Source: a virus
Lineage: Duplodnaviria > Caudoviricetes
DNA length: 27,988 nucleotides
Reading direction: 5' to 3' (one strand)
Virus record (IMG/VR): IMGVR_UViG_3300015050_000944
Coordinates: 1 to 27,988 of that record
Shown here: positions 27 to 25,550 of the stretch, one piece after another
Layout of the letters: every line of letters starts with the position of its first letter
Position numbering within the stretch: position 1 is the first letter of the stretch
The notes under the pieces: model-generated
Seen by the model: the letters and a program-made list of their open reading frames with translations, nothing else
What the model was told of the DNA's origin: nothing
The model's database searches: none
Position numbers and translations under genes: made by a program

Positions 27-314
27 ATGGCAGGGCTTGGGTTTGCCCGCAAGCGGGACCGCCGCAACATTAACGACTACGCTGATGTTCCGGCGGAAGG
101 CGAGAATGAAACACGCACGGACAAACTGGCCCGGCACTACGAGAGGCGAAACAGTGCTTACAAACACGGGCCTGGACCAAAGGCCCGATGGAGCGAGGAA
201 GAGCGTCGGTACAGGCGTTGGCGCGAGAGGAACCCGCGACCGCCTGAATCTGGAACGCCGGATCATTACCCGCCTTATTCTGACGAGTGGCGGAACAACA
301 GGAGAGAAGTGTGA
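27..314 (+). CDS. Small charged, probably disordered protein with N-terminal MAGLGFA motif
   Basis: TAATG overlap with an upstream ORF ending RRKRRTIA*; TGATG overlap with the next gene; shares GLGF and YERRNxxYKH with 8409-8777. Confidence 0.75.
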   Translation: MAGLGFARKRDRRNINDYADVPAEGENETRTDKLARHYERRNSAYKHGPGPKARWSEEERRYRRWRERNPRPPESGTPDHYPPYSDEWRNNRREV

Positions 315-721
315 TGAAGCCAACCGGCTTGAAACTGGCCAGGCGCCCGAACGTGAAGACGGCCGGCGACGAGGATTACTGGCGCCACCCGCAGGATCCG
401 CAGGACGCGGCCGGCGAAGACGCGAATTGGCGTCACCCGCAAGACCCGATGGATCCGGCGCCGCGCAAGCCGGCTTATGCCGACCAGGGTGGCCCCGACT
501 TCGACCCGACTGACGAGAGCCAGAAGCCAGAGGGGTACGACCAGTACTCTGAGGAGGCGTATCAGGATTTTGCCAGCATCGTCTCGAGCGGTCCCGACGA
601 CTCGTACAATTCGTCCGAAATCGATGAGTGGCGCAAGCGGTGGATGGAGCGCGCAGCAGAGATGGGGATGGACGAGCGTCAGGCGAGCCAGGCGCTGGAC
701 GACATTCAGGACGGATACTGA
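314..721 (+). CDS. Acidic low-complexity protein with C-terminal helical module
   Basis: Start reassigned to ATG 314 (GGAGAG at 301-306, TGATG coupling); last 35 aa align ungapped with the C-terminus of 16157-16906. Confidence 0.75.
   Translation: MKPTGLKLARRPNVKTAGDEDYWRHPQDPQDAAGEDANWRHPQDPMDPAPRKPAYADQGGPDFDPTDESQKPEGYDQYSEEAYQDFASIVSSGPDDSYNSSEIDEWRKRWMERAAEMGMDERQASQALDDIQDGY
361..456 (+). repeat. 2 x 48-bp imperfect coding tandem repeat (AGxxxxWRHPQDPxD)
   Basis: Units start at 361 and 409; WRHPQDP is conserved with synonymous changes. Confidence 0.85.
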
Positions 722-1086
722 TGCGCATCACCCGGACAGAGGCCGAGACACTGCTGGCAGGTCAGCGCAAGAACGACGCGCCGTATGCCCATCCACAGGC
801 TGCGATTTCCGCACGGTTCCTCGAGCAGGCCGTTGTGGCAACGCAGCACCTGACCGGGAGCCATGAGTGGAACGTGTTCCTGCAGCGCATCCAGGCATGG
901 GTCGAGCAAGACAAGAAACTGTTTCACACGATGGCAGAGTCGATGGCCCTGCCGAACCTCACATCAGAGCAAGTGCTGCAGGCGCAGCGGCACATGCTTG
1001 CAGCAAGAGCGAGATTGGACGCATGGGAACAGGTACTGGCTTTGCCAAAGCAGATCCTCGAGACAGGCGACCCGAAGGCAGCGTGA
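721..1086 (+). CDS. Hypothetical helical protein of the head region
   Basis: ATG 721 coupled to upstream TGA; amphipathic helices (WNVFLQRIQAWVEQ); lies just before the scaffold/capsid genes. Confidence 0.7.
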   Translation: MRITRTEAETLLAGQRKNDAPYAHPQAAISARFLEQAVVATQHLTGSHEWNVFLQRIQAWVEQDKKLFHTMAESMALPNLTSEQVLQAQRHMLAARARLDAWEQVLALPKQILETGDPKAA

Positions 1087-1223
1087 TTTTGTTCCCGCTT
1101 CCGGCGGAGTTCGCGGAGCGCCTTCGCGCGTTTATTCTTGACAAGCAATCCGGCAACATTCAGTTAAACATCCGGCAGGGAGTGATTCTCGGGTTCCACG
1201 TGAACGAAGTTCACTCCCTTTAG
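1083..1223 (+). CDS. 46-aa protein resembling DUF2292/YezD-type small proteins
   Basis: GTGA overlap at 1083-1086; helix followed by GNIQLNIRQGVI, similar to the G-x-[IV]-x-[IL]-x-[IV]-x-x-G-x-I pattern. Confidence 0.55.
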   Translation: MILFPLPAEFAERLRAFILDKQSGNIQLNIRQGVILGFHVNEVHSL

Positions 1224-1266
1224 CCGTAACATAGGGCGCTTCCACCCAAAGGTTATCGAAACTTCG

Positions 1267-1296
1267 AGCCTCGCTGTGCAAACGGCGGGGCTTTTT
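1267..1296 (+). terminator. Intrinsic terminator-like hairpin upstream of the head genes
   Basis: AGCCTCGCTGT-GCAA-ACGGCGGGGCT: 11-bp stem (2 G-U pairs valid only on +), GNRA loop, then TTTT. Confidence 0.75.
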
Positions 1297-1333
1297 GCTT
1301 TGAAAATTCCATGCCGGATTTGAAAGGTGAGTG

Positions 1334-1930
1334 ATGACGCAAGAGAATGAACAGCAGACGACCCCGGAGTACAGCATTACCGAACTGGATAACGCTGTAG
1401 CGGCCGGCCAGATCACGCAGACCCAGCGTGACCAGATTTTTGCGACGCAGATTGAGCGCAAGGCGATGGTGCAGGCCACGCACGCGGCGACGCAGATCAT
1501 CGAGACAAACAACCGCGAAACCACGCTCGACACGCAGCTGCAGCAGTATGCTGGCCTTGCGCCCGACGTGGTCCGCGAGGGATCCCCACTGCGGCAGCGC
1601 GTGGCACAGGAGTTCGAATTCCTGGTGCAGAACGGCGCGCCGCGTGACCTGACAACGGAACTCGCCGCTGTGCGCGCCGTCATGGGTCCGCTGGAGCGGG
1701 CGAAGCAGTACGCACAGGGTCGCCGCCGCGGGCCTGACGCCGGGCGCGATTCATACGGTGGCTCGATGTCCCCGGTCGAACGCCGCGCCGCGGACGCCTT
1801 TGACCGGCTCGATCCGGCCAAGCAGCAGTATTACCAGAAGCTGATCACCCAGGGCCTTTACACAGACAAGAAGGCCGTGATCAGCGAACTGAACTGGAAG
1901 CGTGGCTCCAACAGCAAGGGCCGCGCATGA
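1334..1930 (+). CDS. Probable capsid scaffolding protein
   Basis: GAAAGGTGA RBS; Q/E/T-rich helical protein with a short helical basic C-terminus; position upstream of decoration and capsid genes (GTG 1331 is an alternative start). Confidence 0.55.
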   Translation: MTQENEQQTTPEYSITELDNAVAAGQITQTQRDQIFATQIERKAMVQATHAATQIIETNNRETTLDTQLQQYAGLAPDVVREGSPLRQRVAQEFEFLVQNGAPRDLTTELAAVRAVMGPLERAKQYAQGRRRGPDAGRDSYGGSMSPVERRAADAFDRLDPAKQQYYQKLITQGLYTDKKAVISELNWKRGSNSKGRA

Positions 1931-2268
1931 TCCTGAACTCCACCCCGAAACCGAACGGCAAGGCCCCCGCGATCATTCGGCCGTCCAGCCATTGGACGCC
2001 GCAGGTCATGGCCAAGCAGACGGAATTTACGGGCCGGAAGGAAGGACAAACCCAAGGCACGCACCTGGACAACCTTGTGCAGTTGCGTCGTGTCATCTGC
2101 CTCTCGCCGGAAGCGGCGAAGAAATTCGGGCACCCGAAGGGGCGCTCGATGGCCGAGAAGCACGGCTATGTCATCAAGAGGTCCGTGCCGATCGCACGGT
2201 CATGGTGTGATGCGACGGGTGAATTCCATCCCGGCTGCATTGTCTTTTTTCCGAAGGAGTTAGCGTAA
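1927..2268 (+). CDS. Hypothetical basic protein
   Basis: ATGA and TAATG coupling on both sides. Confidence 0.65.
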   Translation: MILNSTPKPNGKAPAIIRPSSHWTPQVMAKQTEFTGRKEGQTQGTHLDNLVQLRRVICLSPEAAKKFGHPKGRSMAEKHGYVIKRSVPIARSWCDATGEFHPGCIVFFPKELA

Positions 2269-2972
2269 TGGAATTCGCATATAACCTCGGGTCCAACTCG
2301 ACCCCCCTGATCAAGAAGTACCAGGTCGCGGAAACCTTCGGCTACGCCGGGGTCATCGCGACCGTGGGTGGTGCTGGCGCTTACGGCGTCAAGAAGGCTA
2401 CGACAACCGCCGCTGCCAACTCGATGGGATTGGCCCTCGAGGCCGTGACCACGCTGACAGCACAGCAGTCGGACAACTCCGATCCGGCCCGCATGGTGTC
2501 GATCATTGTCAACCCGGATGCGGTGCTTCGTGCCCGTCTCTCCGGAGCGGCAACCGATGGCACGGCCATCACGGACTACGCTGAAACATCCGGCAACACG
2601 GCAGGCACGACAGTGACCGCAGCCGGTCTGGTGTCAGCAGACGAAGGCATGATCGTCTGCTCGTCGGGGGCCAACGCCGGCAAGTACCGGAAGAACATCA
2701 CCGGCGGCTCGGGTTCAGCTGTTGCCGGCGTTGCTTTCCCCGTCGACATCGCCACCGGCGACAAGTTCTTCACGTTGCCGTTCTCCTGCATGGACATCCA
2801 GACCGTGCAGCTGACGACCAACCTGTTGGAAGTCGATCAGTCGGCAGCGGTTGCCACCAACCAGGTGGCCTACCAGCCGGTCGAAATCAAACTGGGCAAT
2901 CCGCCGTCGGAAATCCTGACTCAGTCTTATGTGTTCCTGGTGGCCTCAGACCACCTGTTTGCGTCCAGCTAA
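2268..2972 (+). CDS. Probable head decoration/cement protein
   Basis: G/A/T/V-rich, beta-like composition; immediately upstream of the major capsid gene. Confidence 0.55.
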   Translation: MEFAYNLGSNSTPLIKKYQVAETFGYAGVIATVGGAGAYGVKKATTTAAANSMGLALEAVTTLTAQQSDNSDPARMVSIIVNPDAVLRARLSGAATDGTAITDYAETSGNTAGTTVTAAGLVSADEGMIVCSSGANAGKYRKNITGGSGSAVAGVAFPVDIATGDKFFTLPFSCMDIQTVQLTTNLLEVDQSAAVATNQVAYQPVEIKLGNPPSEILTQSYVFLVASDHLFASS

Positions 2973-2990
2973 TAGAGAGGATCTAGGTCA

Positions 2991-3911
2991 ATGGCTGTCC
3001 CCCACATTTCCACCCAGTTCGGTGATCTTTTGGACCCACGGTTCCAGAAGATCTTTTACGACCAGTACGACCAGCTGCCCGACATGGTCGACGACCTGTA
3101 CGCCAAGGTCAGCCACAACGGCCGCGCAGACATGCGCTGGTCGGCAGTCGGCGCCTTCGGTGATTGGTCCGAGTTCACCGGCACCGTCGGTTACGATTCG
3201 GTCAACCAGGGCTACGACACGACCACGACATACCTCGAGTTCGTCTCGGGCTGTCAGGTCGAGCGCAAGCTGTTCGATGACGACCAGTTCAACATCATGG
3301 ACAAGCGCCCGCAGGGTCTTGCGATTGCGGCAAACCGCACGCGCCAGAAGCACGCGGCCCGCGTCCTGAACAACATGGGTTCGGTCGACTCGTACTTCTA
3401 CGTCAACAGCGAGGGCGTTGCCCTTGTGTCGGACTCCCACACGACGAACGCCCCCGGCGTCTCGACGACCACGGGCTTCGACAACAAGGTCACGTCGGCA
3501 CTGTCGGCAACGGCACTGTCCGCCGCCCGCATCCAGGGCCAGAAGTTCCGCGACGACCGCGGCAACCTCCTGGCTGTGAACTTCGACGAACTCTGGATCC
3601 CGATCGACCTGTACGACCAGGCGTGGGAAATCGTGAACTCGTCGGGCAAGCTGGACACGGCGAACAACAACAAGAACGTCCACGAAGGCAAGTACAAGAT
3701 CAAGACTTGGAACTACCTGACGGACACGAACGATTGGTCGCTGCAGGATTCCACGATGCGCAAGATGAGCCTGCACTGGGTTGATCGCGTAGGCATGGAG
3801 TTCAAGATGGCCGAGGACATCGACACCCTCGTCGCGAAGTGGCGCGGTTACATGCGTTACTCGATGGCGTGGACCGATTGGCGGTTCATCGTTGGCGCGA
3901 CCGTCAGCTAA
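2991..3911 (+). CDS. Major capsid protein, HK97 fold, Mu gpT-like family
   Basis: 306 aa; GAGAGG RBS; ERKLFDDDQF, GVALVSDSH and the C-terminal EDIDTLVAKWRGYMRYSMAWTDWR signature; strongly biased codon usage. Confidence 0.85.
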   Translation: MAVPHISTQFGDLLDPRFQKIFYDQYDQLPDMVDDLYAKVSHNGRADMRWSAVGAFGDWSEFTGTVGYDSVNQGYDTTTTYLEFVSGCQVERKLFDDDQFNIMDKRPQGLAIAANRTRQKHAARVLNNMGSVDSYFYVNSEGVALVSDSHTTNAPGVSTTTGFDNKVTSALSATALSAARIQGQKFRDDRGNLLAVNFDELWIPIDLYDQAWEIVNSSGKLDTANNNKNVHEGKYKIKTWNYLTDTNDWSLQDSTMRKMSLHWVDRVGMEFKMAEDIDTLVAKWRGYMRYSMAWTDWRFIVGATVS

Positions 3912-3923
3912 CAGGAGGCCCTT

Positions 3924-4877
3924 ATGCCACTTACCAACTATCCTTCTGGCGTCTCCAGTTTCGGCATGCCCCTTGTTGGGGGTGCCGGGGTCGCGACAAC
4001 CGGCAATGTGTTCTTCGTTTCCTCTGTCGCATCCGGCCGGTCAAATTCAACTGCCGCCGGTCGCGATCCCTCGACGCCGTTTGCAACGCTCGATTATGCA
4101 ATCGGGCAATGCACGGCTTCCAACAACGATGTCATCTATGTCATGCCTGGGCATGTCGAGACGATTGCCACAGCTGCCGGTGTTGCCGTCGATGTGGCCG
4201 GGATCGCGATCGTCGGCATGGGGCGTGGCTCGCTGCGCCCGACGATGAACTTCACGGCGACGGGATCAACTTTTGCCATCACGGCGGCGAACATCCTGAT
4301 CACCAACATCCTGTTCACCGGCGGCATTGATGCGATCGTAACACCGATCACGATTGCGGCGGCAGATGTTGAACTCATCTCCATCGAAACCCGTGACGTT
4401 ACCGGCCAGGCCATAGACTGGATCACCACGACCGCAGCGGCCAACCGGCTCCACATCAGGAACTGGACCCATGCGGGTGCCCTCCTTCCAGGTGCCGACA
4501 CCGCCATTTCCATTGTTGGCGGTGACGGGATTGACATTGAAAACTTCAGGATCTTTGGCAACTTCGCTGTCGCGGCCATCGAAAATGTCACTACCGCCTC
4601 CACGAACCTCATCATCGGCGGGGGCGATACTGTGAACTACATCCAGAACAGTCTGGATAACGCAGCCGTGGTGGCAGTCACCCTGGTTGCGACCGCGACC
4701 GGCTTTATCGGACCCAACATCAATATCCGCATCGGTCAGGACGCGACATCGAACACGACCAACATCACCGAGGCGCTTGTGGGCGCGGCCATGCAGTTCA
4801 TGCAGCCGCTCAACATTGCCAACCTTGGTGGCGAAGTCGCTATGCAATCGAACATCACAGCAGCCACTGACGCTTAA
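3924..4877 (+). CDS. Virion structural protein with pectin-lyase-like right-handed beta-helix (head fibre/spike)
   Basis: AGGAGG RBS; N-terminal TNYPSGVSSFG; GRDPSTPFATLDYAI...DVIYVMPG beta-helix cap; I/N/T/A-rich strands. Confidence 0.6.
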   Translation: MPLTNYPSGVSSFGMPLVGGAGVATTGNVFFVSSVASGRSNSTAAGRDPSTPFATLDYAIGQCTASNNDVIYVMPGHVETIATAAGVAVDVAGIAIVGMGRGSLRPTMNFTATGSTFAITAANILITNILFTGGIDAIVTPITIAAADVELISIETRDVTGQAIDWITTTAAANRLHIRNWTHAGALLPGADTAISIVGGDGIDIENFRIFGNFAVAAIENVTTASTNLIIGGGDTVNYIQNSLDNAAVVAVTLVATATGFIGPNINIRIGQDATSNTTNITEALVGAAMQFMQPLNIANLGGEVAMQSNITAATDA

Positions 4878-4898
4878 CCACGAAAGCAAAGGGAAGTC

Positions 4899-5708
4899 AT
4901 GCAAACCTTTACGAAAGACGAAGGGCGGTTCGAAAGGACCGCCCCACTTCTCAAGCAGTCGCAGCTGCAGGAAATGGGACAGGAGCGCGATCGCCTCAAG
5001 CAGACGCTCCACGCCCCGCCGCACTTGCGCAACGCCATTCAGGATGCCTCGACAATGTTCGGCGTCCTCAAGCGCCTGGAGACATCGCTCGAGCGCGACA
5101 CCGCGCGCGAATACGTAGGTCCGGAACTCGACAAGGCCGTGCGCCGCGAGAAGGAACTGCGCGAGAAAATCAAGAGCGGGATGCCCACGTCCGAGGAGAT
5201 GCGCCGCAATCCGCCGGGCGCGCTCGACAAGCACATGCAGTGGGAAGCCCGCAACAAGGCCGACATCGCAGAATGGAAAAACATCCGCCGGCGCATGATG
5301 GCGTCTGGCGCGGTGGAATCGTCCGTTTCCGATGCGTCGGTAGCCAACGTCGAAATGTTGCGCTCGATGGGCGGACACCAGTTGTCGATGGACAGTGCGC
5401 AGATCCCCGTCGCGAAAACGTATTACGGTCTAGGCGGCAGGTCGTCGACATTCACTGACGAGGAGTTGGTCCTCCTCGAGAAGGTTGCCCCGCGCCTGAA
5501 AGAGATGATCGCGCTCTTGTCCGCTGACCAGCGCGACGAGATCAAGACATCGCTCCAGGCCGAGGCTGTGATCCAGCTGGACCCTGCGTCGCTGGAAGGC
5601 CTGACCCACAAGGAAGCGCGCGAGCGTTGCCGTGCGGCCGGCCTCGAGACGGGCGGTTCCCGCGAAGATCTGGTTGATCGCCTCAAGGCGCATTACGGGA
5701 AGAACTGA
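4899..5708 (+). CDS. Helical protein with C-terminal SAP-like DNA-binding domain
   Basis: LEGLTHKEARERCRAAGLETGGSREDLVDRL fits the SAP pattern. Confidence 0.7.
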   Translation: MQTFTKDEGRFERTAPLLKQSQLQEMGQERDRLKQTLHAPPHLRNAIQDASTMFGVLKRLETSLERDTAREYVGPELDKAVRREKELREKIKSGMPTSEEMRRNPPGALDKHMQWEARNKADIAEWKNIRRRMMASGAVESSVSDASVANVEMLRSMGGHQLSMDSAQIPVAKTYYGLGGRSSTFTDEELVLLEKVAPRLKEMIALLSADQRDEIKTSLQAEAVIQLDPASLEGLTHKEARERCRAAGLETGGSREDLVDRLKAHYGKN

Positions 5709-5710
5709 CA

Positions 5711-6124
5711 ATGGCTGACACGGTTGACACGATTGTCCTGCAAAACAACTATCCCTACTACGCGGTAAGGCTTCTGTCGAAGTCTGACGGTACGGGGGAG
5801 ACGAATGTCGTAAAGGTCGATCGATCAACCCTTGTCGGCAGCAACGGGTTGGAGCCGAAGGCGCTCGACATCGTGCATTGCTCGGGCATCGTGTTCGGCG
5901 CCAATCACGTGGCGCTGAACTGGGATGCTGCGACGGACGACGAGGCGCTGATCCTCAGCGGCTCGTTCTGGTTCGACTACGGCGGCATGGCGATCCCTGG
6001 CCTCGGCCCCTTGCGCGATCCGCTATCGGCGACGAACGTGGGAGACATCCTGCTGACGACATCGGGCATGGTCGCCAATGGCGGCTACTGCATCAACCTG
6101 GTCCTCCAGCTGCGCGACAGGTAA
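5711..6124 (+). CDS. Small beta-rich virion structural protein
   Basis: MADTV...SDGTGETNVVKVD...GDILLTT pattern recalled from head-associated phage proteins; head-module context. Confidence 0.55.
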   Translation: MADTVDTIVLQNNYPYYAVRLLSKSDGTGETNVVKVDRSTLVGSNGLEPKALDIVHCSGIVFGANHVALNWDAATDDEALILSGSFWFDYGGMAIPGLGPLRDPLSATNVGDILLTTSGMVANGGYCINLVLQLRDR

Positions 6125-6130
6125 ACGAAC

Positions 6131-7351: not shown

Positions 7352-7380
7352 TCCAAGGGGTTGAGGCGCGGAGGTAATAT
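7352..7380 (+). promoter_or_regulatory. Putative late promoter copy 1: TCCAAG-N17-TAATAT
   Basis: Shares TAATCCAAGGG and GGAG(G/A)TAAT with 22309-22349; identical stop-to-start distance. Confidence 0.55.
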
Positions 7381-7386
7381 CACGCC

Positions 7387-8406
7387 ATGACCACGACCGG
7401 ACAGCTGCGAAATTTCTCCGACCTTTACCTCGACCTGACGAACAGGATCCGGGCGCAAACCGGCACGTCCGGTCCCGAGACGGTGATGAAGCGGTACATC
7501 AACATCGCGCTTCAGGACATCCACATCGGCATGAAGGAGCGCCTGCCCTGGGCAGAGCGGCAGGGCGTGCTGATCACGCAGCCGTCCTACTCGACCGGCA
7601 CGGTGTCGATCACGCAGGGTTCGACCACGCTGACAGGCGTTGGCACCACGTGGAACACGAACAACGCCTGGGGCGTGAAGACCGCACGCAAGTACGGCAA
7701 GCTGGTCCTGAGCGGCGGGCTTGAGAATTACGAAGTGTCGAGCGTCGCCTCGGACACGTCGATCACGCTGGCCTCGCGGTTCACGCAGGACGACCTGAGT
7801 GCTGCGACCTACCAGTATTTCGAGGACGAGTACGACCTTGCCGCGGACTTCCTGCGCCCCGTCGACTTCCGCTTCTTCGACCAGAACCGCCAGTTCACGC
7901 TGATGCCGCGCAACGAGTTCCGGACGAACTACGTGCGGATGCAGACGCCCGGCAAGCCGACGGCGTGCAGCATCGCCGACCGCCCGCCGTCAGGGAACAC
8001 CGACCTCGTCCGCCGCGTGCTGTTCAACCGGCCGACGGACCAGGCCTATTCGATCCCGTATTCCTACATCACGAAGTACCTCGTCGTTTCGAGCGCGGGT
8101 ACGGCGCAGGAGGAGTTCAGCGCGGACGCGGACGAACCGCTGCTGCCGCTGCCCTACCGCCATGTGATCGTGGCCAAGGCGCTGTACTGGGCCTATCGCG
8201 ACCGTCGCGATGACCGGCGCAGCGGGGAGGCGAACCAGGAGTTCGTGGACCTGTGGCTCCGAATCTCGGGGGACAATGAATTTGGCACATCGCGTCCGAC
8301 CATGTCGCCGCGGATTGCTTCGTATGCCTCGCGCGCCCGCCGGCCGATGTCGGGTGCCACGCCGCGGGTTGTGAGCGGATCGGCTTTTGATGAGTTGAGG
8401 GAATAG
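7387..8406 (+). CDS. Head-tail adaptor (tail tubular protein A-like) with inserted beta domain
   Basis: N-terminal helices (KRYINIALQDI), YDLAADF, GKPT, PLLPLPYRHVIVAKAL; typical position before the nozzle gene. Confidence 0.65.
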   Translation: MTTTGQLRNFSDLYLDLTNRIRAQTGTSGPETVMKRYINIALQDIHIGMKERLPWAERQGVLITQPSYSTGTVSITQGSTTLTGVGTTWNTNNAWGVKTARKYGKLVLSGGLENYEVSSVASDTSITLASRFTQDDLSAATYQYFEDEYDLAADFLRPVDFRFFDQNRQFTLMPRNEFRTNYVRMQTPGKPTACSIADRPPSGNTDLVRRVLFNRPTDQAYSIPYSYITKYLVVSSAGTAQEEFSADADEPLLPLPYRHVIVAKALYWAYRDRRDDRRSGEANQEFVDLWLRISGDNEFGTSRPTMSPRIASYASRARRPMSGATPRVVSGSAFDELRE

Positions 8407-8408
8407 AG

Positions 8409-8777
8409 ATGCCGAAGGGTCTTGGTTTTACGGAAGAAGAAGCAGCGGCGAAGAACGACAGGCGGAAAGGCGACCGCATGAGCGGCGCCGACTACGAGCG
8501 TCGCAACACCGACTACAAGCATTCCGATGGTCGCTACACGAAAAGAGAAAAGAGTGACTACGGTTATGAAAACCGACAGACACAGTTGTCCATCGACCGC
8601 GACATCCACACTCTGCCAGAGCCAGAAACTCCAGAAGACGAAACGGGGTACTGGGACAAGTCGACCAAGGCAACTGACGCCAAATTTGAAGAGTGGCGCA
8701 AGAAGCTGAAGGCGCGTGGCTATTCCGACGAGGAGATTGAAGACATCCTCTCGGATGCAGTGAGCCTGCACGACTAA
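8409..8777 (+). CDS. Small charged protein with GLGF, YERRNxxYKH and C-terminal GYSDEEIE helical module
   Basis: GAGG RBS; TAATG coupling to the nozzle gene; shares motifs with 27-314, 314-721 and 16157-16906. Confidence 0.8.
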   Translation: MPKGLGFTEEEAAAKNDRRKGDRMSGADYERRNTDYKHSDGRYTKREKSDYGYENRQTQLSIDRDIHTLPEPETPEDETGYWDKSTKATDAKFEEWRKKLKARGYSDEEIEDILSDAVSLHD

Positions 8778-10381
8778 TGCCCAGCGGCGACCTCTTTGTT
8801 CGGCACCTCTTCGGCGGCGGCTTCGCAACGGACATTGGTCCGATGTCGGACGCTGGTCCGCAGGGTGGCGGCGGGGTCGCCCAGATGGTCATCCCCTGGC
8901 TGCTGCAGTGCGACAACGCGATGTTCGACCTCGATGGCGGCATCACGAAGTCTCCAGGCACGACGAAGATCAACGCGTCGGCGCTCGAGAGCGGCGCCAC
9001 GATCCGGGGCATCTACGACTTCTGGATCCAGGGCGGCACAGGCTCGCCCTCGCAGAAGCGCATCGTGCACGTCGGCACGAAGATCAAGGCGGATGCCGGC
9101 GATGGAATCTTTGCCGACATCGCGACCGTCTCGAGCGACAGTGCGGTGCCATCGTACTGTACGTTCAACGACGAACTGATCATCAGTGACGATGCGAACT
9201 CGGCGCCCAAGAAGTGGACGGGCACGGGGTCGGCGTCAGCACTTGGCGGCTCGCCCCCGAACTTTGCCTTTGCGGTGGAACACAAGGGACGCGTCTTCGC
9301 AGCCGGCAACCCGGCACAGCCCTCGCGTCTCTACTACAGCGCCGCGTTCAACCATGAATCGTGGAACACAAGCGCGAACTACATCACCATCGGTTCGAAC
9401 GACGGGTCCGGCATCACGGGGCTGGCCTCGTACAAGGACGCGCTGATCATCTTCAAGGGTCCGAAGAGGGGGTCCATCTATGTCTTGCAGGGGGACGACA
9501 CTTCAGACTTTTCGCTTTCGCTTCTGCGCAAGAACTGTGGCTCGGCCGTCTGGCACAACGCAATCTTCCAGTACCAGGATGATCTTGCGTTCGTGGCAGC
9601 GGATGGTTCGATCCAGCGTCTTTCCGCGACGAGCGCCTTCGGTAACTTCAGCCTCGCGCACCTGACGCGCAACATCGGCAAGTACATCAACAACAACGTC
9701 GCGCGCACGTACCTGCGCAAGGCGTGCGTGGCGAACTGGGAGTCGAAGGGCGTGGCGCTTGTGACGCTGCCCATCAACTCGTCGGCCACGACGAACCTGA
9801 TCCTGATGATGGATTACCGCTTCGGCGAGGAGCCGCGCTTCAGCACGTGGACCGGCTACATGGGCAAGTGTTCGACAATGACGCTGGCGATCGACGAGAG
9901 CGATGCCGCCCGGCAGGTCGTGCTGGTCGGCGGCACGGATGGCTATGTCCGCAAGCTGGACGTGAACGCATACTCCATCGACAGCGCGACGGCGATTACC
10001 TGCATCGCGAAGACCCCACACTTGTCCTACGGCATGCCGCACATGACGAAAGTCATCACGGGCGGGTCGCTGGGATTTGCTCCGCTTACGGACGATACGG
10101 TGACGTTCAAGTGGGAGCGCGACAACGAAACCTATGGCACGCTGGAAGTCAGCCAGGGCGGCGGCGACCTGCTGTCCCCGTCATCGGGCACCGACTTCAC
10201 GCTGGACACGTCCGTGCTGGGCGGGGCGTCGTTCGTGGACACGTGGTTCGAACTCGAGACAGGCGGCGAGTTCCGCAACATTGCCTACACGTTTTCGAAC
10301 GCGGACCTGAACGGCAGTTTTGAGTTGCACTCGGTGTCGACCTTCCTGCGGGGAGCCGCACTGTCAATGGAGAATGCATAA
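8777..10381 (+). CDS. Tail nozzle/stabilisation protein (beta-propeller; tail tubular protein B / P22 gp10-like)
   Basis: 534 aa; HKGRVFAAG...SRLYYS and GSGITGLASYKDALIIFK blade motifs; follows the adaptor. Confidence 0.7.
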   Translation: MPSGDLFVRHLFGGGFATDIGPMSDAGPQGGGGVAQMVIPWLLQCDNAMFDLDGGITKSPGTTKINASALESGATIRGIYDFWIQGGTGSPSQKRIVHVGTKIKADAGDGIFADIATVSSDSAVPSYCTFNDELIISDDANSAPKKWTGTGSASALGGSPPNFAFAVEHKGRVFAAGNPAQPSRLYYSAAFNHESWNTSANYITIGSNDGSGITGLASYKDALIIFKGPKRGSIYVLQGDDTSDFSLSLLRKNCGSAVWHNAIFQYQDDLAFVAADGSIQRLSATSAFGNFSLAHLTRNIGKYINNNVARTYLRKACVANWESKGVALVTLPINSSATTNLILMMDYRFGEEPRFSTWTGYMGKCSTMTLAIDESDAARQVVLVGGTDGYVRKLDVNAYSIDSATAITCIAKTPHLSYGMPHMTKVITGGSLGFAPLTDDTVTFKWERDNETYGTLEVSQGGGDLLSPSSGTDFTLDTSVLGGASFVDTWFELETGGEFRNIAYTFSNADLNGSFELHSVSTFLRGAALSMENA

Positions 10382-10830: not shown

Positions 10831-10833
10831 TAC

Positions 10834-12484: not shown

Positions 12485-12957
12485 AAGTCGGCTGGGCGCG
12501 CGACGAGGACGCAGACCAGGTCAAGGCGCTGCTCGCGGCTGACGGCCTGTTCCTCGAGGGCGGCGATTGGCGGGGCCTCGGCAAGACGTGGATGTGCGTG
12601 CGGGACGGGAAGAAGATCCTCGCCTGCATTGCCTGTCACCCAGGAATCCCCTTTGCCCGGCTGGACTATCTGTCGATCGACAGCGACGTGACAGGCTTAT
12701 CCAAGGTGCGTGTCGTGAGGAGTATCCTTGAGGCTGCATTTGCAGTCTGCGCGTTGCAGGGGTCGAGTTTCGTGAGCGGCGTGGTGCCTTACGACCTGCC
12801 GGATTATGCGGAGTTCATTCGCAAGCGTGGCGGACAGCAGATCAACGAAGGATTCATTTTCGTCGCGTCCCTGTCGGACGTGTTGAAAAGGCGGATAGAG
12901 GTTCATGGGCGGCGGAAGCAAAACAACAACATCGACGACGGTCACTCGAACACCTGA
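12481..12957 (+). CDS. GNAT-fold-like virion assembly protein (T7 gp13 / P22 gp14 position)
   Basis: ARDEDADQVKALL...CVRDGKKILACI...FIRKRGG pattern; directly upstream of the ejection genes. Confidence 0.5.
   Translation: MKVGWARDEDADQVKALLAADGLFLEGGDWRGLGKTWMCVRDGKKILACIACHPGIPFARLDYLSIDSDVTGLSKVRVVRSILEAAFAVCALQGSSFVSGVVPYDLPDYAEFIRKRGGQQINEGFIFVASLSDVLKRRIEVHGRRKQNNNIDDGHSNT
12700..12728 (+). promoter_or_regulatory. Putative late promoter copy 2 (intragenic): TCCAAG-N17-TATCCT
   Basis: ATCCAAGG at 12699-12706; GGAG immediately before the TAnnnT box; ~175 nt upstream of 12905. Confidence 0.45.
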
Positions 12958-14452
12958 AGAAATCGAGTACACCAAGCAGCAGATCGAACTTGCCAAGCAG
13001 CAACTCGCGCTGGTCGAGGAAGAGCATGGCTGGCAGTCCGAGATCTACGCGCTAACGAAGCCGCTGCTCGAGAAGTACGCCCTGATGGTTGATCAGGACT
13101 TCGCCGAGATGCAGTCGCCCGAATACCAGGCGATGAAGGCGAAGCAGCAGCAACTGGACACCGCCAACATCGACGCGCAGCTGCGCAACCTGCCCATGCA
13201 GGAAGAACTGCTGCAGCGTCAGCTGGACGAGATTCGCCGTGGCGGGGCAGCGACCGACGAGCAGAAGCGCCTGATCAAGGATGTGGCGGACCGCGCGCTG
13301 GCCGGTGGTGAGACGGACATCAACCGTTTCCTTGGAACCGGTCTGGACCAGATCCGCAACCAGATGGCGCCGGCGCGCGGCATGCGACCGGACGACGGGC
13401 CGATGCAGGAAGCCGCGCAGCGCGTCCTGGAAGAGGCTGTGCGTCAGCAAGGCCAACTGTCCCAACAGGTCCGCGGAGCGCAGTCGCAGGCCGAACTGAA
13501 CTTCCCGCTGGCGGCAGGGCAGGTCACGAACCAGGCGAACCAGTGGCAGGCGGGCTTCAACCAGGACATGAACCAGTTCCTGTCCGGACTGAAGACGCAG
13601 GCAGTGCAGAACCGCACGGCTTTGATGGGCCAGCTGTTCTCGGCGCCGATGACCGCAGGCGACCGTGGCCTCAACCTCGTCAACGTGTCTCGCCCGAACC
13701 CGGTGAACTTCCCGCAGAACACGACGACGACGCAGAAGACGAGCGGTGGCAGCATCTTTGGCGGCATCGGTGGGCTGCTGCAGGGCGTCGGTGCCGTCGC
13801 GCCGCTGTTCTCCTCGCGCAAGGCGAAGACCAACATCAAGCCAATGGAAGCGCCGCCGGGGCACATGCTGTCGCCGGGCGCGCTGAAACAGAACTTCAAC
13901 GACCTTAGTGGCGAGTCCCCCATCGGCCCTGCCAATCAGGTGCCGATCCTGACGCAGACGGTTGGCAAGCCGCCGCAGCCTGACATGCCGCAGATCCACC
14001 CACGCTGGGCAGGGCCTCAGACGGGTGGCAAGCCGCCGCAGCCCGACATCCCGCAGATCAATCCAGGGTGGGCAGGACCGCAGACGGGTGGCAAGCCGCC
14101 GGAACCCGACATCCCGCAGATCAACCCGGGCTTTGGTGGCGGGGCCATGCCGACGGTGCAGCCGCCGCGCGACGAGGAAGACGCGCTGAACCGGCTGCGC
14201 CAGCTGCCAATCTCGTCGTGGCAGTACAAGCCAGAGACAGGCCTTGGTGGCCCGACGCACGTTGGACCGATGGCCGAGGACTTCAACACGATCATGATGG
14301 GCAAGAAGCCTGAACCGTTCATCAACACGGTCGACGCCGTTGGTTCGCTGATGGCGAGCGTCAAGGCGCTCGACAAGCGGATGATGGGCCTCGGACTTGG
14401 CCAAGCGAAGAAACCGCGCAGAGCAAGAGCAGGAGCAGGAGCATGGAGATAG
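12905..14452 (+). CDS. Probable ejection (DNA transfer) protein with C-terminal peptidase S74 autocleaving chaperone
   Basis: MGGGSKTTTSTT start; Q-rich coiled coil; Gly-rich hydrophobic segment; SSRKAKTNI, then ALNRLRQLPISSWQYK, HVGPMAEDF, LMASVKAL. Confidence 0.7.
   Translation: MGGGSKTTTSTTVTRTPEEIEYTKQQIELAKQQLALVEEEHGWQSEIYALTKPLLEKYALMVDQDFAEMQSPEYQAMKAKQQQLDTANIDAQLRNLPMQEELLQRQLDEIRRGGAATDEQKRLIKDVADRALAGGETDINRFLGTGLDQIRNQMAPARGMRPDDGPMQEAAQRVLEEAVRQQGQLSQQVRGAQSQAELNFPLAAGQVTNQANQWQAGFNQDMNQFLSGLKTQAVQNRTALMGQLFSAPMTAGDRGLNLVNVSRPNPVNFPQNTTTTQKTSGGSIFGGIGGLLQGVGAVAPLFSSRKAKTNIKPMEAPPGHMLSPGALKQNFNDLSGESPIGPANQVPILTQTVGKPPQPDMPQIHPRWAGPQTGGKPPQPDIPQINPGWAGPQTGGKPPEPDIPQINPGFGGGAMPTVQPPRDEEDALNRLRQLPISSWQYKPETGLGGPTHVGPMAEDFNTIMMGKKPEPFINTVDAVGSLMASVKALDKRMMGLGLGQAKKPRRARAGAGAWR
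13955..14131 (+). repeat. ~2.8 x 63-bp coding tandem repeat (QTxGKPPQPDxPQIxPxWAGP)
   Basis: Units start at 13955, 14018 and 14081. Confidence 0.9.
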
Positions 14453-14457
14453 AGCCA

Positions 14458-14652
14458 ATGGGGCTTGGCTTTGCGAAGGCCAGGAAAAAGCCGCGCGCGT
14501 ACCCTGAAAGAAATCAGCCGTACCTTGTGCGCCCGCAGACAGTGAATGAGCGGGGTAGCCCATACGCGTATGGTGGGCGCAACGTGGGCACGTATTACAC
14601 AGAGCGGCGCAGGCCCGGCGTTCCCGCCGAACGGAAATGGATGCCAACATAA
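14458..14652 (+). CDS. Small basic protein beginning MGLGFAKARKKPR
   Basis: GGAGA 8 nt before ATG 14458 (ATG 14443 is an alternative); TAATG coupling to the next gene; fills the gap between two long genes. Confidence 0.65.
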   Translation: MGLGFAKARKKPRAYPERNQPYLVRPQTVNERGSPYAYGGRNVGTYYTERRRPGVPAERKWMPT

Positions 14653-16157
14653 TGGCTGGTCTTGGGTTTGCAAATCCGGAACGCAAGCGCGCAGAAATGC
14701 TCGCGCGCATGCACGGCTCCACGTCGCCGGTGGCGACAGCGGCACAGCCAATGCTTGGTCCGGAGATGGGACCGGCAATGCCAGCGCCACAGCAGCCGCA
14801 GGCGCAGATGCCTGGGGTTGCCCCGCCAACCCCGCCAACCCCGGCACCACTGCCCATGCCGCAGATCCCTGCAACGATCCCGCAGTCGGCACAGCCACCG
14901 CAGGCCGAGGCAGAGGCAGAGGATGACGGTCCTGCATGGCATGAAGTAATCGGTGCCTTGGGCCATGTGATCCTGTCGGCTGACGCTGGCTATCGCGGCA
15001 CGGCGCAGCCCGACAACCCGTTTGCCAAGGACCAGGACCAGGAGATGCAGGTCCAGCAGTTCATCATGAACACGGCCGCGCGCGGGTGGGAGGCGATCCG
15101 CAAGGCCGACCCCGAGAACCGCCCGGCGATCATGAAGACCTTTGCCGAGATCATCCGCAAGGTTGACCCGAACTTTGACTACGAGGCGTTTGTCGACGGC
15201 CTGATGTCCGACCCCGACCGCGTGGACCAGATGGCGCCACAGATCGCGATGATGTCGGACGAGGCCAAGGAGATGTTCATGGCCCGCGTGCGCGCGGCCG
15301 GTGGCGATCCCGCGACAGCTGCGGCGGAAGTCATCAAGGACGAGACGTTCATGAAGACGCTCACCGACTTCGATGATGAGCGCAACATGAAGGTCATGCC
15401 CTACAAGCTGGAGCGCGTGAAGGCTGCGCTTATCTCGATGGGCATGGATCCGATGATGTTCGCGAACATGACGCCGGAAGAGTTCGCGCGCGTGAACAAC
15501 GAGTTGCCCGAGAAGGCGCGCCTGACACCGGCCGAGATTGCAACGCTGCGTCGCCAGCCGTCGCTCGGCAAGATCCTTGGCCTGCGCTATGCAGACGAGG
15601 CTCCGGAGGGTGGCTCGCCGACAATGGACGGCGAAGCAGGATACAGGCCCCCGTCGCGCCCGCAGCGGCCGGCAGCGGTGATGCCTGACGAAGAACCGAT
15701 GGACGATGGTGGAGACTTTGCGCCGCCATCGCGCGCGCCCGCTCCCCCGCGGTCCAGTGCGCGACCCGCCTCCCCACCGGCCCCCCCGCCGGCGCGGGGT
15801 CCATCGGCCCCACGCCCCGCGCCAGCCCCTGCCCCGAAGCGGCCGACGACGCCTGCCCCGCAGCCATCGGGCAAGGCTCCATCGAAGCCTAGCAGCCCAT
15901 ACTACCCGCCCGGCTGGAACCCGCGCACGCCCAAGCCGCGGCCTGAACCGGCACCGGTGACGAAGGTTGATGTGCCCGGGAGCCGCCCGAAGAAACCGGC
16001 GCAGCCTGCACCCGCGCCCGATACGCAGTCGGAGGGTTCGCGCGAGCGTCGCGTCGTAATGCCGAAGGACATGGAAATCAAAGGCTTCGGCAAGGTCAAG
16101 AAAGGCGACGTGCTGGTCTATGACTACAAGAGCGGCACTTACCGGAGGGCGAAGTAA
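14652..16157 (+). CDS. Probable ejection/internal virion protein; MAGLGFA start, helical core flanked by Pro-rich arms
   Basis: Start reassigned to 14652 (TAATG overlap); second long gene of the ejection cluster. Confidence 0.65.
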   Translation: MAGLGFANPERKRAEMLARMHGSTSPVATAAQPMLGPEMGPAMPAPQQPQAQMPGVAPPTPPTPAPLPMPQIPATIPQSAQPPQAEAEAEDDGPAWHEVIGALGHVILSADAGYRGTAQPDNPFAKDQDQEMQVQQFIMNTAARGWEAIRKADPENRPAIMKTFAEIIRKVDPNFDYEAFVDGLMSDPDRVDQMAPQIAMMSDEAKEMFMARVRAAGGDPATAAAEVIKDETFMKTLTDFDDERNMKVMPYKLERVKAALISMGMDPMMFANMTPEEFARVNNELPEKARLTPAEIATLRRQPSLGKILGLRYADEAPEGGSPTMDGEAGYRPPSRPQRPAAVMPDEEPMDDGGDFAPPSRAPAPPRSSARPASPPAPPPARGPSAPRPAPAPAPKRPTTPAPQPSGKAPSKPSSPYYPPGWNPRTPKPRPEPAPVTKVDVPGSRPKKPAQPAPAPDTQSEGSRERRVVMPKDMEIKGFGKVKKGDVLVYDYKSGTYRRAK

Positions 16158-16906
16158 TGGCCGACAAGCGACCCAGCAAACCACCCCCGCGTCCGCCGGT
16201 GCCGACACCTCGGCCGAAGCCGCGCCCGCCGATTGACCGGCAGCCAGGCGACATGTTGCGCGAGCGCAGGCGGTTGTCTGCGCCAGACAATGAGCAGGAG
16301 ATGAGCATGAAGAAGATGAACAAGGGCCTCGGCTTCGCGGTCAACAAGCGACCGGTCGATTCGGGCGCCAAGCCAATGCCGTACACGCCTCGAGAAGGCG
16401 GTGGCGCCAAGACGATGCCGCTGAAGCCTGGGCAGGGCGCCGGCGCGAAGACGATGCCGTATCGTCCGAACAAGCCAGCCCTCGACCCGGTGCGCAGGAT
16501 GTCCTACGACGCGCCGGTCATGGACAGCCTTGGCGATCCGATGCCTCCTGGTTACGCCGACACGATGGAATACATTCCGGAGCGCGACGGCGATGCCTGG
16601 GGGCAGGGCGGTCCGTATCAGGGTGAGGATCCCGGCATCGTGCCGCTCGGCAAGCAGGAAGAGAACCAGAAGTGGAAGTACGATAACTGGCGTTCGGAAG
16701 AGGGTCGCCCCATTCCTGAAGACGGGGCCAATGTCTACAACGACCTGTTCGACGAGTGGGACCGCAAGCGTCCGGTGACGGGCGCGGACGAGAACCCGAC
16801 CGAGGTCGCGCAGTGGGAGCGTTCGGTGCGCCGCGCTGCAGCCGAAGCGGGCCTGAGTGAGGAAGAGATCGAACAGCTGCTCAACGACCTGTACGATCTT
16901 GACTGA
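16157..16906 (+). CDS. Pro-rich/acidic protein with KGLGFA motif and C-terminal GLSEEEIE helical module
   Basis: TAATG and TGATG coupling; shared modules with 314-721 and 8409-8777. Confidence 0.75.
   Translation: MADKRPSKPPPRPPVPTPRPKPRPPIDRQPGDMLRERRRLSAPDNEQEMSMKKMNKGLGFAVNKRPVDSGAKPMPYTPREGGGAKTMPLKPGQGAGAKTMPYRPNKPALDPVRRMSYDAPVMDSLGDPMPPGYADTMEYIPERDGDAWGQGGPYQGEDPGIVPLGKQEENQKWKYDNWRSEEGRPIPEDGANVYNDLFDEWDRKRPVTGADENPTEVAQWERSVRRAAAEAGLSEEEIEQLLNDLYDLD
16364..16468 (+). repeat. 3 x 39-bp-period coding repeat (GAKxMP[Y/L]xP)
   Basis: Units start at 16364, 16403 and 16442. Confidence 0.85.
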
Positions 16907-19900
16907 TGCCACTACGTCCCTCCCCGTTCCTGGAAAAGCCGCCTGAGAAGAAGAAGCGGCAACCGACGCCTGAAGAACTCGGGTTGATCCCGCCCGAGGA
17001 TTTTGGGCGACCAAGTGCGGCTGACAAAAAGCGAAAGGCAGAGAGCCAGCCGGCGCCTGCGCCGAAGATCACGCGCCAGCCGACGCCCGAGGAGCTCGGG
17101 TTCGAGGACGCGCCTGAGTTGCCGGCGGGCACACAGCCGTCGCCTGAAGACCTTGGCATTGCCCAGAAGCCGATGGGGACGCCTGCGCCGGCGAACGATG
17201 ATTCGTGGGAGGCGTGGTGGAACTGGGCACAGGATCGCGTTGAGCCTGTTGCGCAGGAAGCGGGTGAGACGGCCGATTGGCTGTGGGACAACATCAAGAC
17301 CTACGCGGGCTATGAGGAGGAGAAGCGGACCGGCTTCAAGCAGGACACCAGCCGCCGTGTCGAGCGTCCGGACATGGGGAAAGACGGCGGGTACGTTGAT
17401 TGGGCCGTAGACCAGATCGTGCCCGACTTCTTGTACGACTTCTTCACGTCGAAGCGCACGCAGAAGGACTTCGAAATCGGCTTTGACACGGCGCAGTACG
17501 CTTTCGGAGACTTCCTGAAAGGCGGCGCCTTTGTGATGAAGAAGGCCGACGAAGGCTTGCGCGCGATCGGCATCGACCTTGATTTCCACGGCCGCTCGGA
17601 AGAAGAGCGCGAGGCCACGTGGGCCGGGACAATCAAATTCCTCGACGACATCCAGAAGTCCTACGGCGCAGACATCCAGAGGAAGTCCGCGGCCTACGAG
17701 CAGGAGTACGGGCCGCGCGACCTTGGCGACGCGCTCGTTCGGGTCGTGCCGGCATTGCCGACGATGCTGGCCCAGTACGGGTTGGCCGGCTTCGCGCTCG
17801 GGCCTGTTGCAGGCTTTGCGTTCGTGGATGGCATGGTGAAGGCCGGTGCCGGCGGCTCGCCGGATGAAGTGTTGTTCGCGGCGGTGAAGGGCGCGGCCCT
17901 CGGCAAGTTGCTCGAGTGGTCGAACGTGCTGTCTCGCCCGTTGCGCATCGCTCCTATCGCAGGCGCCGGCTACGGTCTTGCGAAGTCAGAAGGTGCCGAT
18001 GAAGTCGACGCGATGGCGAGCGGCATCACGTTTGGCGTCCTTGGCGTCTTGCCCAAGAGCGGCCCTGTCAACGTGCGCTACCTGCGCGAACACGGCGTGA
18101 TGCCAGACATCCGCGACATCGGTGGCCACGTGCGCGACCTGTTCATCGGCGGCAACGAGCCGATGGCCAAGCGGGACTTCGAAACATCTGGCTGGGCGCT
18201 CAAGCAGATCCGCACGAAGCACAACGTCGAGCAGACGCAAGAGATGCAGATGTGGCAGGACGAACTTGCTGCAGCCCGCAAGCCGCGGGAGGGTGACACC
18301 GAGACATCGGTGCAGGACCGCGTGGCCGAAGCGAACTCCCGCCATGAGCAGCGTCTCGAGGGGCAGTCGAAGAAACAGTTCGAGGAAGAACTTCCGTTCC
18401 GCCAGGCACACGATCACGCTGATCGCCGCTACCGCCGCGCGCAGCATCCGTTCTTTGGCGTGACGTGGCGCGAGGCGCCGTACATGCGGTCGCTGCACAT
18501 GTACGAGCGCGACGTGGTGACCACGAACCTGCAGTCGGCAACTGCGCTGCAGAAAATTAATGAACAGAATGAACAGCAGTCGATCGACGCCAAGGCGCGC
18601 GCGGACGAACTGCGCCGGCAGGCTGAAGACGAGCCGGATGAAGTCGTGCGCCGCCGCATGAATCAGCAGGCGGACATGATCGAGAACGAGACGTTCCGCA
18701 TGACGTTCGAGCGTCGCGTGAATGCCGAGGATGCCACCGAGTTCGCGCTCGAGATGTCCGAGATGCGGGCGGCGAGCGCGCGCTACGAATTGGTTCGGAT
18801 CATCGAGGCGAAGAACAAGGTTGAAGGGCGCCGCGCCATGCAGATGGCGACGGAGCGGGACCTTGGCGATGCTTACCGGGCTGGCGTGCGCAAGGTCGCG
18901 CGCGGCAACCGGCGTGCACGTGAGTTGCTGGAAACCGGTGACAGGGTTGTCAACAATGAAATGGCGCGCATGAAGCGTGACGGGATCACGGAGGACAACC
19001 CGCAGACGCAACGAATCTGGCAGGAGCGGATGGAAGAACTCGAGGCGATCCGCGAGAACTATCGTGGCATGGCGTCCCTGTCCCTGTGGGAGAACCAGAG
19101 CGCGGCCGACATGCGGATCTCGTTCGCGCGCTCTGCGTGGGAGATGGCGCACAATCCGGAAGTGAAGCCGGGCACGCTGGGCCGCATCCTGGAGATCTTG
19201 GGCTTGCGTAAACCGCGCGCGCCTGACGAGGTTGATCTTCAGCGGCACGGCCTCGACAAGTTCCAGCCGAAGCGCGATACCTCGCCGGAAGATGCAAAGA
19301 AAGATGGGCCGGATGGGTGGGACGCGCCGCCAAAGGCAGACCCGGTCAAACCGGCCAAGGGGTTCGAGCAGCGTTACAAGGCGCTGATGGAGCATTCGCT
19401 CAAAGACCCGAAACTGGGCAAGATTCAGGACCAGGTGGACCGTGCGTTGCAATTGGTGTCGCGGCCTGAAGACGTGCTGCCCATGATCAACTTCGTGGCG
19501 AGCAAGAACCACTACGACCCGCCGTCACGCCGTGGCATCCAGACGGCGAAGCTGCGCAAGAAAGCGGCTGAGAGCCTGGGCATGACATCGGAGGAGTTCC
19601 TGAACTCGCCCTACGGCAAGGCGTTCAGTGACTTCGAACTTGAAGCCGTCATCATGATCATGGACCGGCAGTGGGCGCGCACGCAGCACGCCTACGCGCT
19701 GTGGCGCAAGACGGGTTCGAACAATGCCTACATGGCTTACCAGGCTGAACTCTATCGCTTCATGATGATCTGGGAACGCCTGCGCGGTGCGGCGGCTGAA
19801 TCCGGCCGCTCGCTGCGCATGTTCCGCGAGATCAAGGGCAAGTACGGCAGCGCGACGCGGCCCCTTTCCGACCTCGAATACAAGATGATCATGTCGGGCG

Positions 19901-25495: not shown

Positions 25496-25521
25496 GATGG
25501 GGTCCTCCAGAGACAGTGGGA

Positions 25522-25550
25522 AATTTATTCCCACTTCTGGAGTCTGTCAA
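25522..25550 (-). promoter_or_regulatory. Sigma70-type int promoter: TTGACA-N17-TAAATT
   Basis: Perfect -35 (25550-25545), 17-nt spacer, -10 at 25527-25522 flanked by the inverted repeat AGTGGGAA/TTCCCACT. Confidence 0.7.

Follow-up and report, generated by a model that had tools for sequence, protein, structure and literature searches.

A GLGF-type peptide on ejection proteins and exchangeable small late proteins of a podophage clade: a candidate prohead-loading tag

Bacteriophage T4 directs internal proteins to its prohead by means of a capsid-targeting sequence (CTS) of about 10 residues, which is sufficient to load foreign proteins (PMC9958956). One of the T4 internal proteins, IPI*, is an injected anti-restriction protein that inhibits GmrSD (PMC9958956). 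How ejection proteins are recruited into the podophage prohead is an open question: work on P22 points to the scaffold, and the available text of these papers names no signal (PMC8402733, PMC12005531). Loading of the P22 ejection proteins (E-proteins) requires the scaffold and not the portal, gp7 and gp20 being loaded via N-terminal fragments (PMC8402733), and they are proposed to dock on the scaffold column (PMC12005531). Here we describe a short GLGF-type peptide, the tag, carried by two predicted ejection proteins and by several small late proteins of a phage whose late region forms a 27,988-nucleotide (nt) stretch of DNA (IMG/VR record IMGVR_UViG_3300015050_000944, Caudoviricetes; hereafter the window). 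The three predicted ejection proteins are called EP1, EP2 and EP3 and the small proteins are named after their length in amino acids (aa); coordinates are given in Table 1.

GLGF occurs five times in the six frames of the window; all five copies are encoded by the + strand and read in frame within called genes (33, 8418, 14461, 14658 and 16325). There are two variants, GLGL at 14387 and GLKL at 326. An earlier note on this DNA had listed these copies together with EELGL, EELGF and EDLGI in EP3, and a six-frame scan found every one of them in place. Five copies of GLGF compare with 0.14 expected in the 7,931-residue + strand proteome. The note had also proposed a scan of protein termini against a shuffled background: in 20,000 shuffles of 30 N-terminal 10-mers a 4-mer was never common to four proteins and was common to three in 16. 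As the note had held, GLG[FL] is absent from the gene ends of the capsid, adaptor, nozzle and lysis genes; it is equally absent from those of the seven called minus-strand genes. The consensus drawn from 24 small proteins is [KR]-G-L-G-[FL]-[SA], with downstream basic residues that are frequent but not constant. The tag lies close to the N-terminus of several late proteins that are unrelated, the exceptions being copies at residues 57-107 and at the EP1 C-terminus. It is kept among phages that share only 47-56% adaptor identity and whose loci range from ~44 to 65% guanine plus cytosine (GC). Exact DNA patterns, which are narrow, retrieve little from IMG/VR: MAKGLGF gave 10 matches, only one of them at a gene start (L115, same clade), and MAGLGFAN gave two, the same phage and one that is not at a called gene start.

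The conserved unit is the peptide and not DNA or RNA structure. Eight loci were examined for codon use and seven of them supplied 23 terminal GLG[FLMI] copies. The first glycine is encoded by GGG, GGC, GGA and GGT in 9, 5, 5 and 4 copies, all four codons being used at both glycine positions; the leucine by CTT, CTC, TTA, CTA and CTG in 12, 5, 3, 2 and 1; and serine at +1 by both TCN and AGY. This agrees with the earlier observation that codons differ while the peptide is conserved, and homologues as well as non-homologous slot replacements keep the motif. RNA structure at 25 tagged gene starts shows no excess over 42 controls (mean z +0.52 versus +0.30, P 0.75), and the sequences upstream of the 25 starts have nothing in common beyond ribosome-binding sites. 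A DNA or RNA element was therefore rejected on the varied codons and the folding comparison. The preference for CTT stays unexplained: 12 of the 23 tag leucines (window, L003, L018-L022) versus 83 of the 558 leucine codons of window genes, and 11 of 34 in the first 12 codons.

EP2 carries the best conserved copy. Its start reads G[LF]GF in 17 of 18 homologues (37-100% identity, including this phage's own), the remaining one being an N-truncated call. A wider family was assembled from deduplicated loci whose adaptors are 36-100% identical, EP2 being defined by its position (n=30). There, [GS][LIFM]G[LFMI] lies within the first 14 residues of 12 of the 30 EP2 and of 2 of 554 other recognised genes (Fisher 2.5e-15), while the strict G-form is found at this position in 9 of 30 EP2 and in none of the other genes. 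Within the first 60 residues 13 of 30 have the strict form, or 0.0078 per residue versus 0.0002 in the rest of EP2. The enrichment at termini and the conservation in homologues that the note had expected are thus observed. In a structural model (predicted local distance difference test, pLDDT, 60) residues 1-8 are unstructured and are followed by a helix (9-20), ~100 disordered residues and a helical core, so that the motif is predicted to be tethered on a disordered N-terminus.

EP1 ends in a predicted Peptidase S74 domain (PF13884, 35.1 bits versus a cut-off of 22). Its homologues match phrog_4287 'DNA ejection protein' as well as phrog_8003 and phrog_6121, 'virion structural protein' families among them. 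Ser303 (13811) and Lys308 (13826) are both invariant in the 37 closest homologues (37/37); the alignment holds 74 of 75 homologues, one partial match having been dropped. The domain is interrupted by a 118-aa low-complexity insertion (13829-14180) containing three Pro/Gln-rich tandem repeats. This insertion measures 23 to 220 aa in close homologues and is ~99 nt shorter in the X16 contig. Among the 37 closest homologues 31 carry the motif downstream of the S74 serine, the tail being its site in 21 and the insertion its only site in 10, and six are without it. These counts leave out a second stretch rich in Gly and Leu, which forms a conserved column around residue 250, before the cut site. Copies in the insertion often read GLGFANP, as at the EP2 start. 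Nine of the other 37 homologues are without S74; of the 28 that have it nine carry the motif, one of them in two tandem copies. In a quick tree of the N-terminal part the tail and insertion forms fall into separate, well-supported sister groups, which indicates that the motif shifts position yet stays on the predicted cut-off piece. S74 domains are described as cutting themselves upon trimer folding (PMC10769870). The EP1 tag lies on a C-terminal piece that is predicted to be released by self-cleavage, a point absent from the earlier note, as was the second module of the small proteins described below.

The other carriers are seven small tagged genes (the note had counted about eight tagged proteins; the number is now these seven and two ejection proteins). 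They occupy four slots: from the portal gene to the gene of a 121-aa protein, from adaptor to nozzle, from EP1 to EP2 and from EP2 to EP3. Their products are disordered, charged and low in aliphatic residues. Most of the genes are coupled to the adjoining ones, stop and start codons overlapping or lying side by side, and they thus look like late genes rather than morons with promoters of their own. Relatives with 86-98% capsid identity have two to seven small genes in the available stretches, often non-homologous and all tagged. Thus the s64 slot holds non-homologous tagged genes in L019 and L021, and tagged orphans also occur in the distant loci L050 and L081. Orthologues of s135 have GLKL, GLGM or GLNL. 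The s249 tag lies at residue 57 of a 249-aa open reading frame, some orthologues being short with the tag at residue 9 and others long with the tag at 57-107. The note's view that the copies are terminal is accordingly true of most, this one being internal if Met51, with a GGAG 6 nt before it, is not the true start.

The small genes are under purifying selection yet are swapped or lost between strains. The ratio of nonsynonymous to synonymous substitution rates (dN/dS) is 0.11-0.47 in seven of eight pairs (s122 0.11-0.24; s135 0.32 versus L003; s249 0.36-0.47), the eighth being saturated. Their synonymous divergence to L019 and L020 reaches 0.30-0.62, versus 0.08-0.25 for six structural genes of the same genome pairs, including the capsid, adaptor, nozzle, scaffold and 121-aa genes. 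Contigs were compared for 4 of 24 listed runs. Two of them, X17 and X22, from two runs and two studies, join 8406 to 8778, showing that s122 is cleanly absent there; a third, X16, keeps 8409-8440 and differs beyond, and retains the tag codons of both s122 and s135 without their bodies. Such clean absence was found for s122 only; in relatives the slots can be vacant or hold another gene. Both EP1 and EP2 are presumably essential. This turnover of real, dispensable small genes supports the idea that they are cargo of a system resembling the T4 internal proteins.

A C-terminal helical module, W..W..A..AG[LMY]S.EE..L, is found in four of the seven small proteins. Three of these are in the window (s122, s135 and s249), so that the five small proteins of the note are partly paralogous. 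The module has no Pfam or PDB family of note and the Atlas is blank for s122. A profile of the module alone, with the tag excluded, gave 55 matches among 1.84 billion proteins. The length matched and the number of stretches were the criteria by which 29 of these were classed as single-domain. The tag is present in 25 of these 29, or in 20 of 23 after six query-like rows are dropped, and two of the three untagged ones have KGLAL; none of the 26 repeat-type matches has the motif in its first 15 residues. The tag persists in proteins that are less than 50% identical, at offsets of 3 to 107. A by-eye likeness of the module to the C-terminal helix pair of the scaffold (L071, L075, L076) raised the possibility of mimicry, which was rejected (profile-profile probability 0.5%, P 0.12), and the module profile matched no scaffold among 2,038 family proteins.

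The earlier note had all three ejection proteins tagged, and this stands for EP1 and EP2. In EP3 the sequences EELGL, EELGF and EDLGI are found at residues 23, 62 and 81, and two or three N-terminal repeats ending in L-G-[LF] exist in 12 of 12 homologues, 10 of which fit [ED][ED]LG[LFMI]; the [ST]PExLG[LF] repeats and the tag have only L-G-[LF] in common. They are perhaps a variant of the tag, perhaps a separate motif, and the chances that they use the same receptor as the tag seem to us evenly balanced. The N-termini of distant EP3 (L052, L055, L066, L067, L084, L091) exhibit tandem repeats of an acidic amphipathic kind that differ from lineage to lineage (LFDDL, NPF.EL, VEEFLG and PTEEELEG are examples), which suggests a second, co-evolving docking code on EP3.

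From the motif, its conservation, its mobility and the turnover of its genes we infer a path of packaging, docking, cleavage, ejection and cargo function. We hold it rather probable that [KR]-G-L-G-[FL]-[SA] is a tag for prohead loading, comparable in action to the T4 CTS, in a podophage that builds its head on a scaffold and in which no head protease was detected. The conserved carriers are the predicted internal head proteins only, the rest being optional late proteins, and the simplest common need is therefore entry into the prohead. The tag would dock EP1, EP2 and the seven small late proteins onto the assembling prohead, most likely onto the scaffold core, for packing inside the head. The scaffold is the favoured and likeliest receptor by analogy, since P22 loading needs it and its column is the proposed docking site. 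The capsid protein is another candidate, and the 121-aa protein, which belongs to an Atlas cluster of 137 unnamed viral proteins and is tagged in 0 of 31 family homologues, may be a third. The motif would be old on the disordered EP2 N-terminus. On EP1 it would ride the S74 chaperone piece, which the protein would itself cut off once loaded, making the tag a label that removes itself. No head protease family match was found among the window head genes, the portal-to-capsid gene order having been checked on what is an incomplete contig, and capsid matches to protease-capsid PHROGs are confined to their capsid part. Lastly, small disordered genes would have gained the label in this clade and become optional passengers, swapped between strains. 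These passengers would probably be ejected with the DNA, either shielding it or blunting host defences as T4 IPI* does; an anti-defence role is a tentative proposal, somewhat on the unlikely side.

Several observations weigh against prohead loading. The catalytic motif of EP1 is S-[ST]-x-x-x-K and not SDxxxK, position 2 being Ser, Thr or Ala and never Asp. The tag is absent in 6 of the 37 close and 19 of the 28 distant S74-bearing EP1 homologues, where EP1 loading cannot depend on it, and if S74 cleavage preceded head assembly the EP1 tag would load a discarded piece only. For EP2, the first 14 residues of 18 of the 30 family members do not contain the motif, the patterns were set once the data had been inspected, and 3 of the 12 positives belong to this clade. 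The identity of EP2 comes from position alone, since it has neither a PHROG or Pfam match nor a fold match in PDB or BFVD. Its synonymous divergence versus L019 is also raised (0.39), the signal thus extending beyond the small genes. The G-form is present in the first 14 residues of 0 of 26 EP3 family members. We infer, and do not observe, that tagged proteins are present in virions, and the P22 gp20 N-terminus has a structural role after ejection (10.64898/2026.09.03.749273).

This last point leads to the main rival of prohead loading, which we regard as unlikely: an ejection or channel-assembly signal acting at exit, on the portal barrel, the nozzle or the EP1 channel, for N-first threading or the building of a conduit. 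The small proteins would then be wedge-like helpers, or hitchhikers loaded otherwise. The first 47 residues of P22 gp20 insert in the lumen of the gp7* channel (10.64898/2026.09.03.749273), a role as nozzle wedges is proposed for small ejected proteins of low complexity such as T7 gp7.3 and Ar-KM gp34 (10.64898/2026.05.18.726046), and EP2 is where the motif is best conserved. However, the EP1 motif is C-terminal or in a loop of the predicted cut-off piece and shifts position between sister groups, a poor fit to N-first threading or to a fixed channel wall, and small genes that number seven and can be absent are unlike a stoichiometric wedge.

Less probable still, and in our view a long shot, is a docking motif for a host or non-head partner of late proteins (chaperone, protease adaptor or membrane site), the small proteins being unpackaged decoys or regulators. 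Motifs of five or six residues in a disordered context are typical of docking sites, which counts for this explanation, and the phage itself offers only candidate receptors. It is harder to reconcile with a motif that persists over the range of adaptor identity and GC content given above, and with conserved carriers that are predicted internal head proteins only. A neutral by-product (duplicated gene starts, or codons kept as a DNA or RNA element or as a recombination anchor, with an idle peptide on the small proteins) could draw on the CTT excess, the tag codons retained in X16 where the gene body differs, the paralogy of four of the seven small genes and the GLGFANP shared by EP1 loops and the EP2 start, but it is largely refuted and the least probable of all, synonymous changes being found at every position with no common upstream sequence or structure signal, and the motif surviving below 50% identity, at widely different offsets and, in EP1, far from any start codon.

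Prohead loading also has a bolder form, which is conceivable although we doubt it: a transplantable podovirus ejectosome loading code of 5-6 residues that began on a channel protein, moves on a self-cleaving S74 piece standing in for a prohead protease and was captured by a hypervariable disordered family, so that a small temperate podophage would inject a strain-specific anti-defence payload. A mobile peptide on ejection proteins and optional small proteins provides a direct mutational handle on recruitment. If the loading tag is real, cargo addressing as known from T4 would also exist in protease-less podophages, and S74 domains may have a new use as labels that remove themselves. The tag would then also mark a family of proteins as candidates for anti-defence factors delivered by injection, and would supply a minimal means of loading proteins into podophage heads. 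Such a podovirus motif is not named in the available text of PMC8954989, PMC5694885 and PMC9509320, and a literature search, partly judged by title and conducted outside supplements and most subscription journals, found no paper on a phage GLGF tag.

The ejection cluster has a podovirus arrangement, with three large genes downstream of the tail module, internal-virion-protein homology and conserved order. An integrase-like gene (24398-25534, -; weak Pfam matches) and the AAA_24 gene suggest that the phage is temperate. The portal is SU10-like as read from relative L019 (L019:30-2411), outside the window. The capsid model has a pLDDT of 83 and its best fold matches are phage capsids. The proteins named scaffold, decoration protein and acetyltransferase are presumed to be such from their position. 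No cultured relative exceeds 34% capsid identity among 50,697 phage records. All 12 runs with at least half of the sampled words are freshwater metagenomes (6 of the 12 being possible sources of this DNA), and an expression look-up found no RNA dataset among the listed runs with phage sequence.

Table 1. Position of the tagged genes and of their neighbours in the window
Feature	Position	Strand	Evidence or remark
Two further tagged small genes (129 and 66 aa)	just upstream of window, downstream of portal gene		seen in L016/L018, same phage
s95, small basic disordered protein	27..314	+	tag GLGF 33-44, residues 3-6
s135, acidic disordered protein	314..721	+	variant tag GLKL 326-337; C-terminal helical module ~584-718
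Conserved 121-aa protein, between portal and scaffold	721..1086	+	untagged
Predicted scaffolding protein	1334..1930	+	position and C-terminal helix pair; no family match
HK97-fold major capsid protein	2991..3911	+	PF25209 and PF10124 above cut-off; untagged
Adaptor, SU10-adaptor-like	7387..8406	+	PF24175 E 2e-4, below its cut-off; untagged
s122, disordered protein	8409..8777	+	tag GLGF 8418-8429; C-terminal helical module; cassette between adaptor and nozzle
Nozzle, gp10-like	8777..10381	+	tblastn to genes annotated 'phage stabilization protein'; ends untagged
EP1, first ejection protein	12905..14452	+	split S74 chaperone/protease domain; tag GLGL 14387-14398
s64, small basic protein	14458..14652	+	start perhaps 14443; tag GLGF 14461-14472
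EP2, second ejection protein	14652..16157	+	position; start perhaps 14637; tag GLGF 14658-14669
s249, disordered protein	16157..16906	+	tag GLGF 16325-16336, residue 57; C-terminal helical module
EP3, 1801-aa internal virion protein	16906..22311	+	phrog_6651 'internal virion protein' E 5e-14
EP3 N-terminal repeats [ST]PE[ED]LG[LFI], n=3	16972-16986, 17089-17103, 17146-17160	+
AAA_24 ATPase gene	26705-27727	-	Pfam match

A conserved 113-aa gene between the scaffold and decoration genes (1927-2268) encodes a Cys-Asp..His-Pro-x-Cys pattern and possibly binds zinc, without a convincing family match. In L003 and L020 an unrelated 229-aa gene takes the place of the 317-aa gene after the capsid gene (3924-4877), and 698 other letters fill that slot in the X16 contig. 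A SAP DNA-binding-domain protein of the head module is kept in the clade (window 4899-5708; L003:5804-6622; L092:6442-7164; L097:8965-9867). In L003 the orthologue begins MSLGLAK and in L092 and L097 it has tag-like peptides close to the C-terminus; the protein may thus be an occasional cargo. The adaptor includes an inserted segment (residues ~60-150) that matches the N-termini of tail-fibre families. A 98%-identical relative has an extra 193-aa gene within its tail module (L019:13865-14446) with an HNH-like Cys/His end recognised by eye. In two distant relatives small genes directly after the capsid gene (L043:5824 and L049:5138) encode a C-terminal KDRGLGLPKI.

Among described systems the CTS of T4 IPI-III is a close counterpart. 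Like the tag, it is found in the N-terminal region of a number of late proteins that otherwise differ and are non-essential, and its cargo is small and highly charged. The CTS associates with the scaffolding core and is removed by a phage prohead protease. Its sequence is other, and the tag described here is also carried by conserved ejection proteins and may be C-terminal or internal. In addition the present phage is a podophage with a head module of the P22/SU10 type and no detected prohead protease, the predicted mode of removal being S74 self-cleavage. The tag likely works like the T4 CTS but differs from it in sequence, position and protease. P22 resembles this phage in its three large genes after the tail module (gp7, gp20 and gp16). 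Every E-protein of P22 is said to possess a site of its own, and the available text of these papers names no short common loading motif (PMC8402733, PMC12005531); host OpdA trims the gp7 N-terminus, whereas EP1 has a C-terminal S74 domain, and the small tagged genes interleaved among the ejection genes are a feature of the present phage. In SU10 five ejection proteins are without resolved density.

The earlier note had drawn a parallel with encapsulins. Cargo peptides of Family 1 encapsulins such as GGDLGIRK and GSLxIGSLK (PMC10960027) are also short and Gly-rich, with two hydrophobic residues one apart and basic residues near, and their shell has the HK97 fold. They are usually C-terminal, whereas [KR]GLG[FL][SA] is mostly N-terminal, and the shell here is a phage capsid with an SU10-like portal, an adaptor and a nozzle. 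Encapsulins of this family have neither portal nor tail, and a hydrophobic pocket on their inner P-domain binds the peptide. A special closeness of this capsid to encapsulins was not seen in the fold ranking, where they appear only at ranks 32 and 47; the nearest folds are phage capsids and the analogy is therefore left without specific support. The small proteins recall T7 gp7.3 and Ar-KM gp34, which are short, charged, low-complexity and poorly conserved open reading frames adjoining the portal gene (10.64898/2026.05.18.726046). Those lie upstream of the portal and are described by their basic ends and not by a common peptide, whereas in the present phages as many as four follow the portal gene and three further slots hold the rest. 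The head paralog families of SPN3US and phiKZ (PMC5694885) similarly include a variable number of paralogous head proteins of unknown function, but they belong to giant myoviruses and have propeptides cut by a protease.

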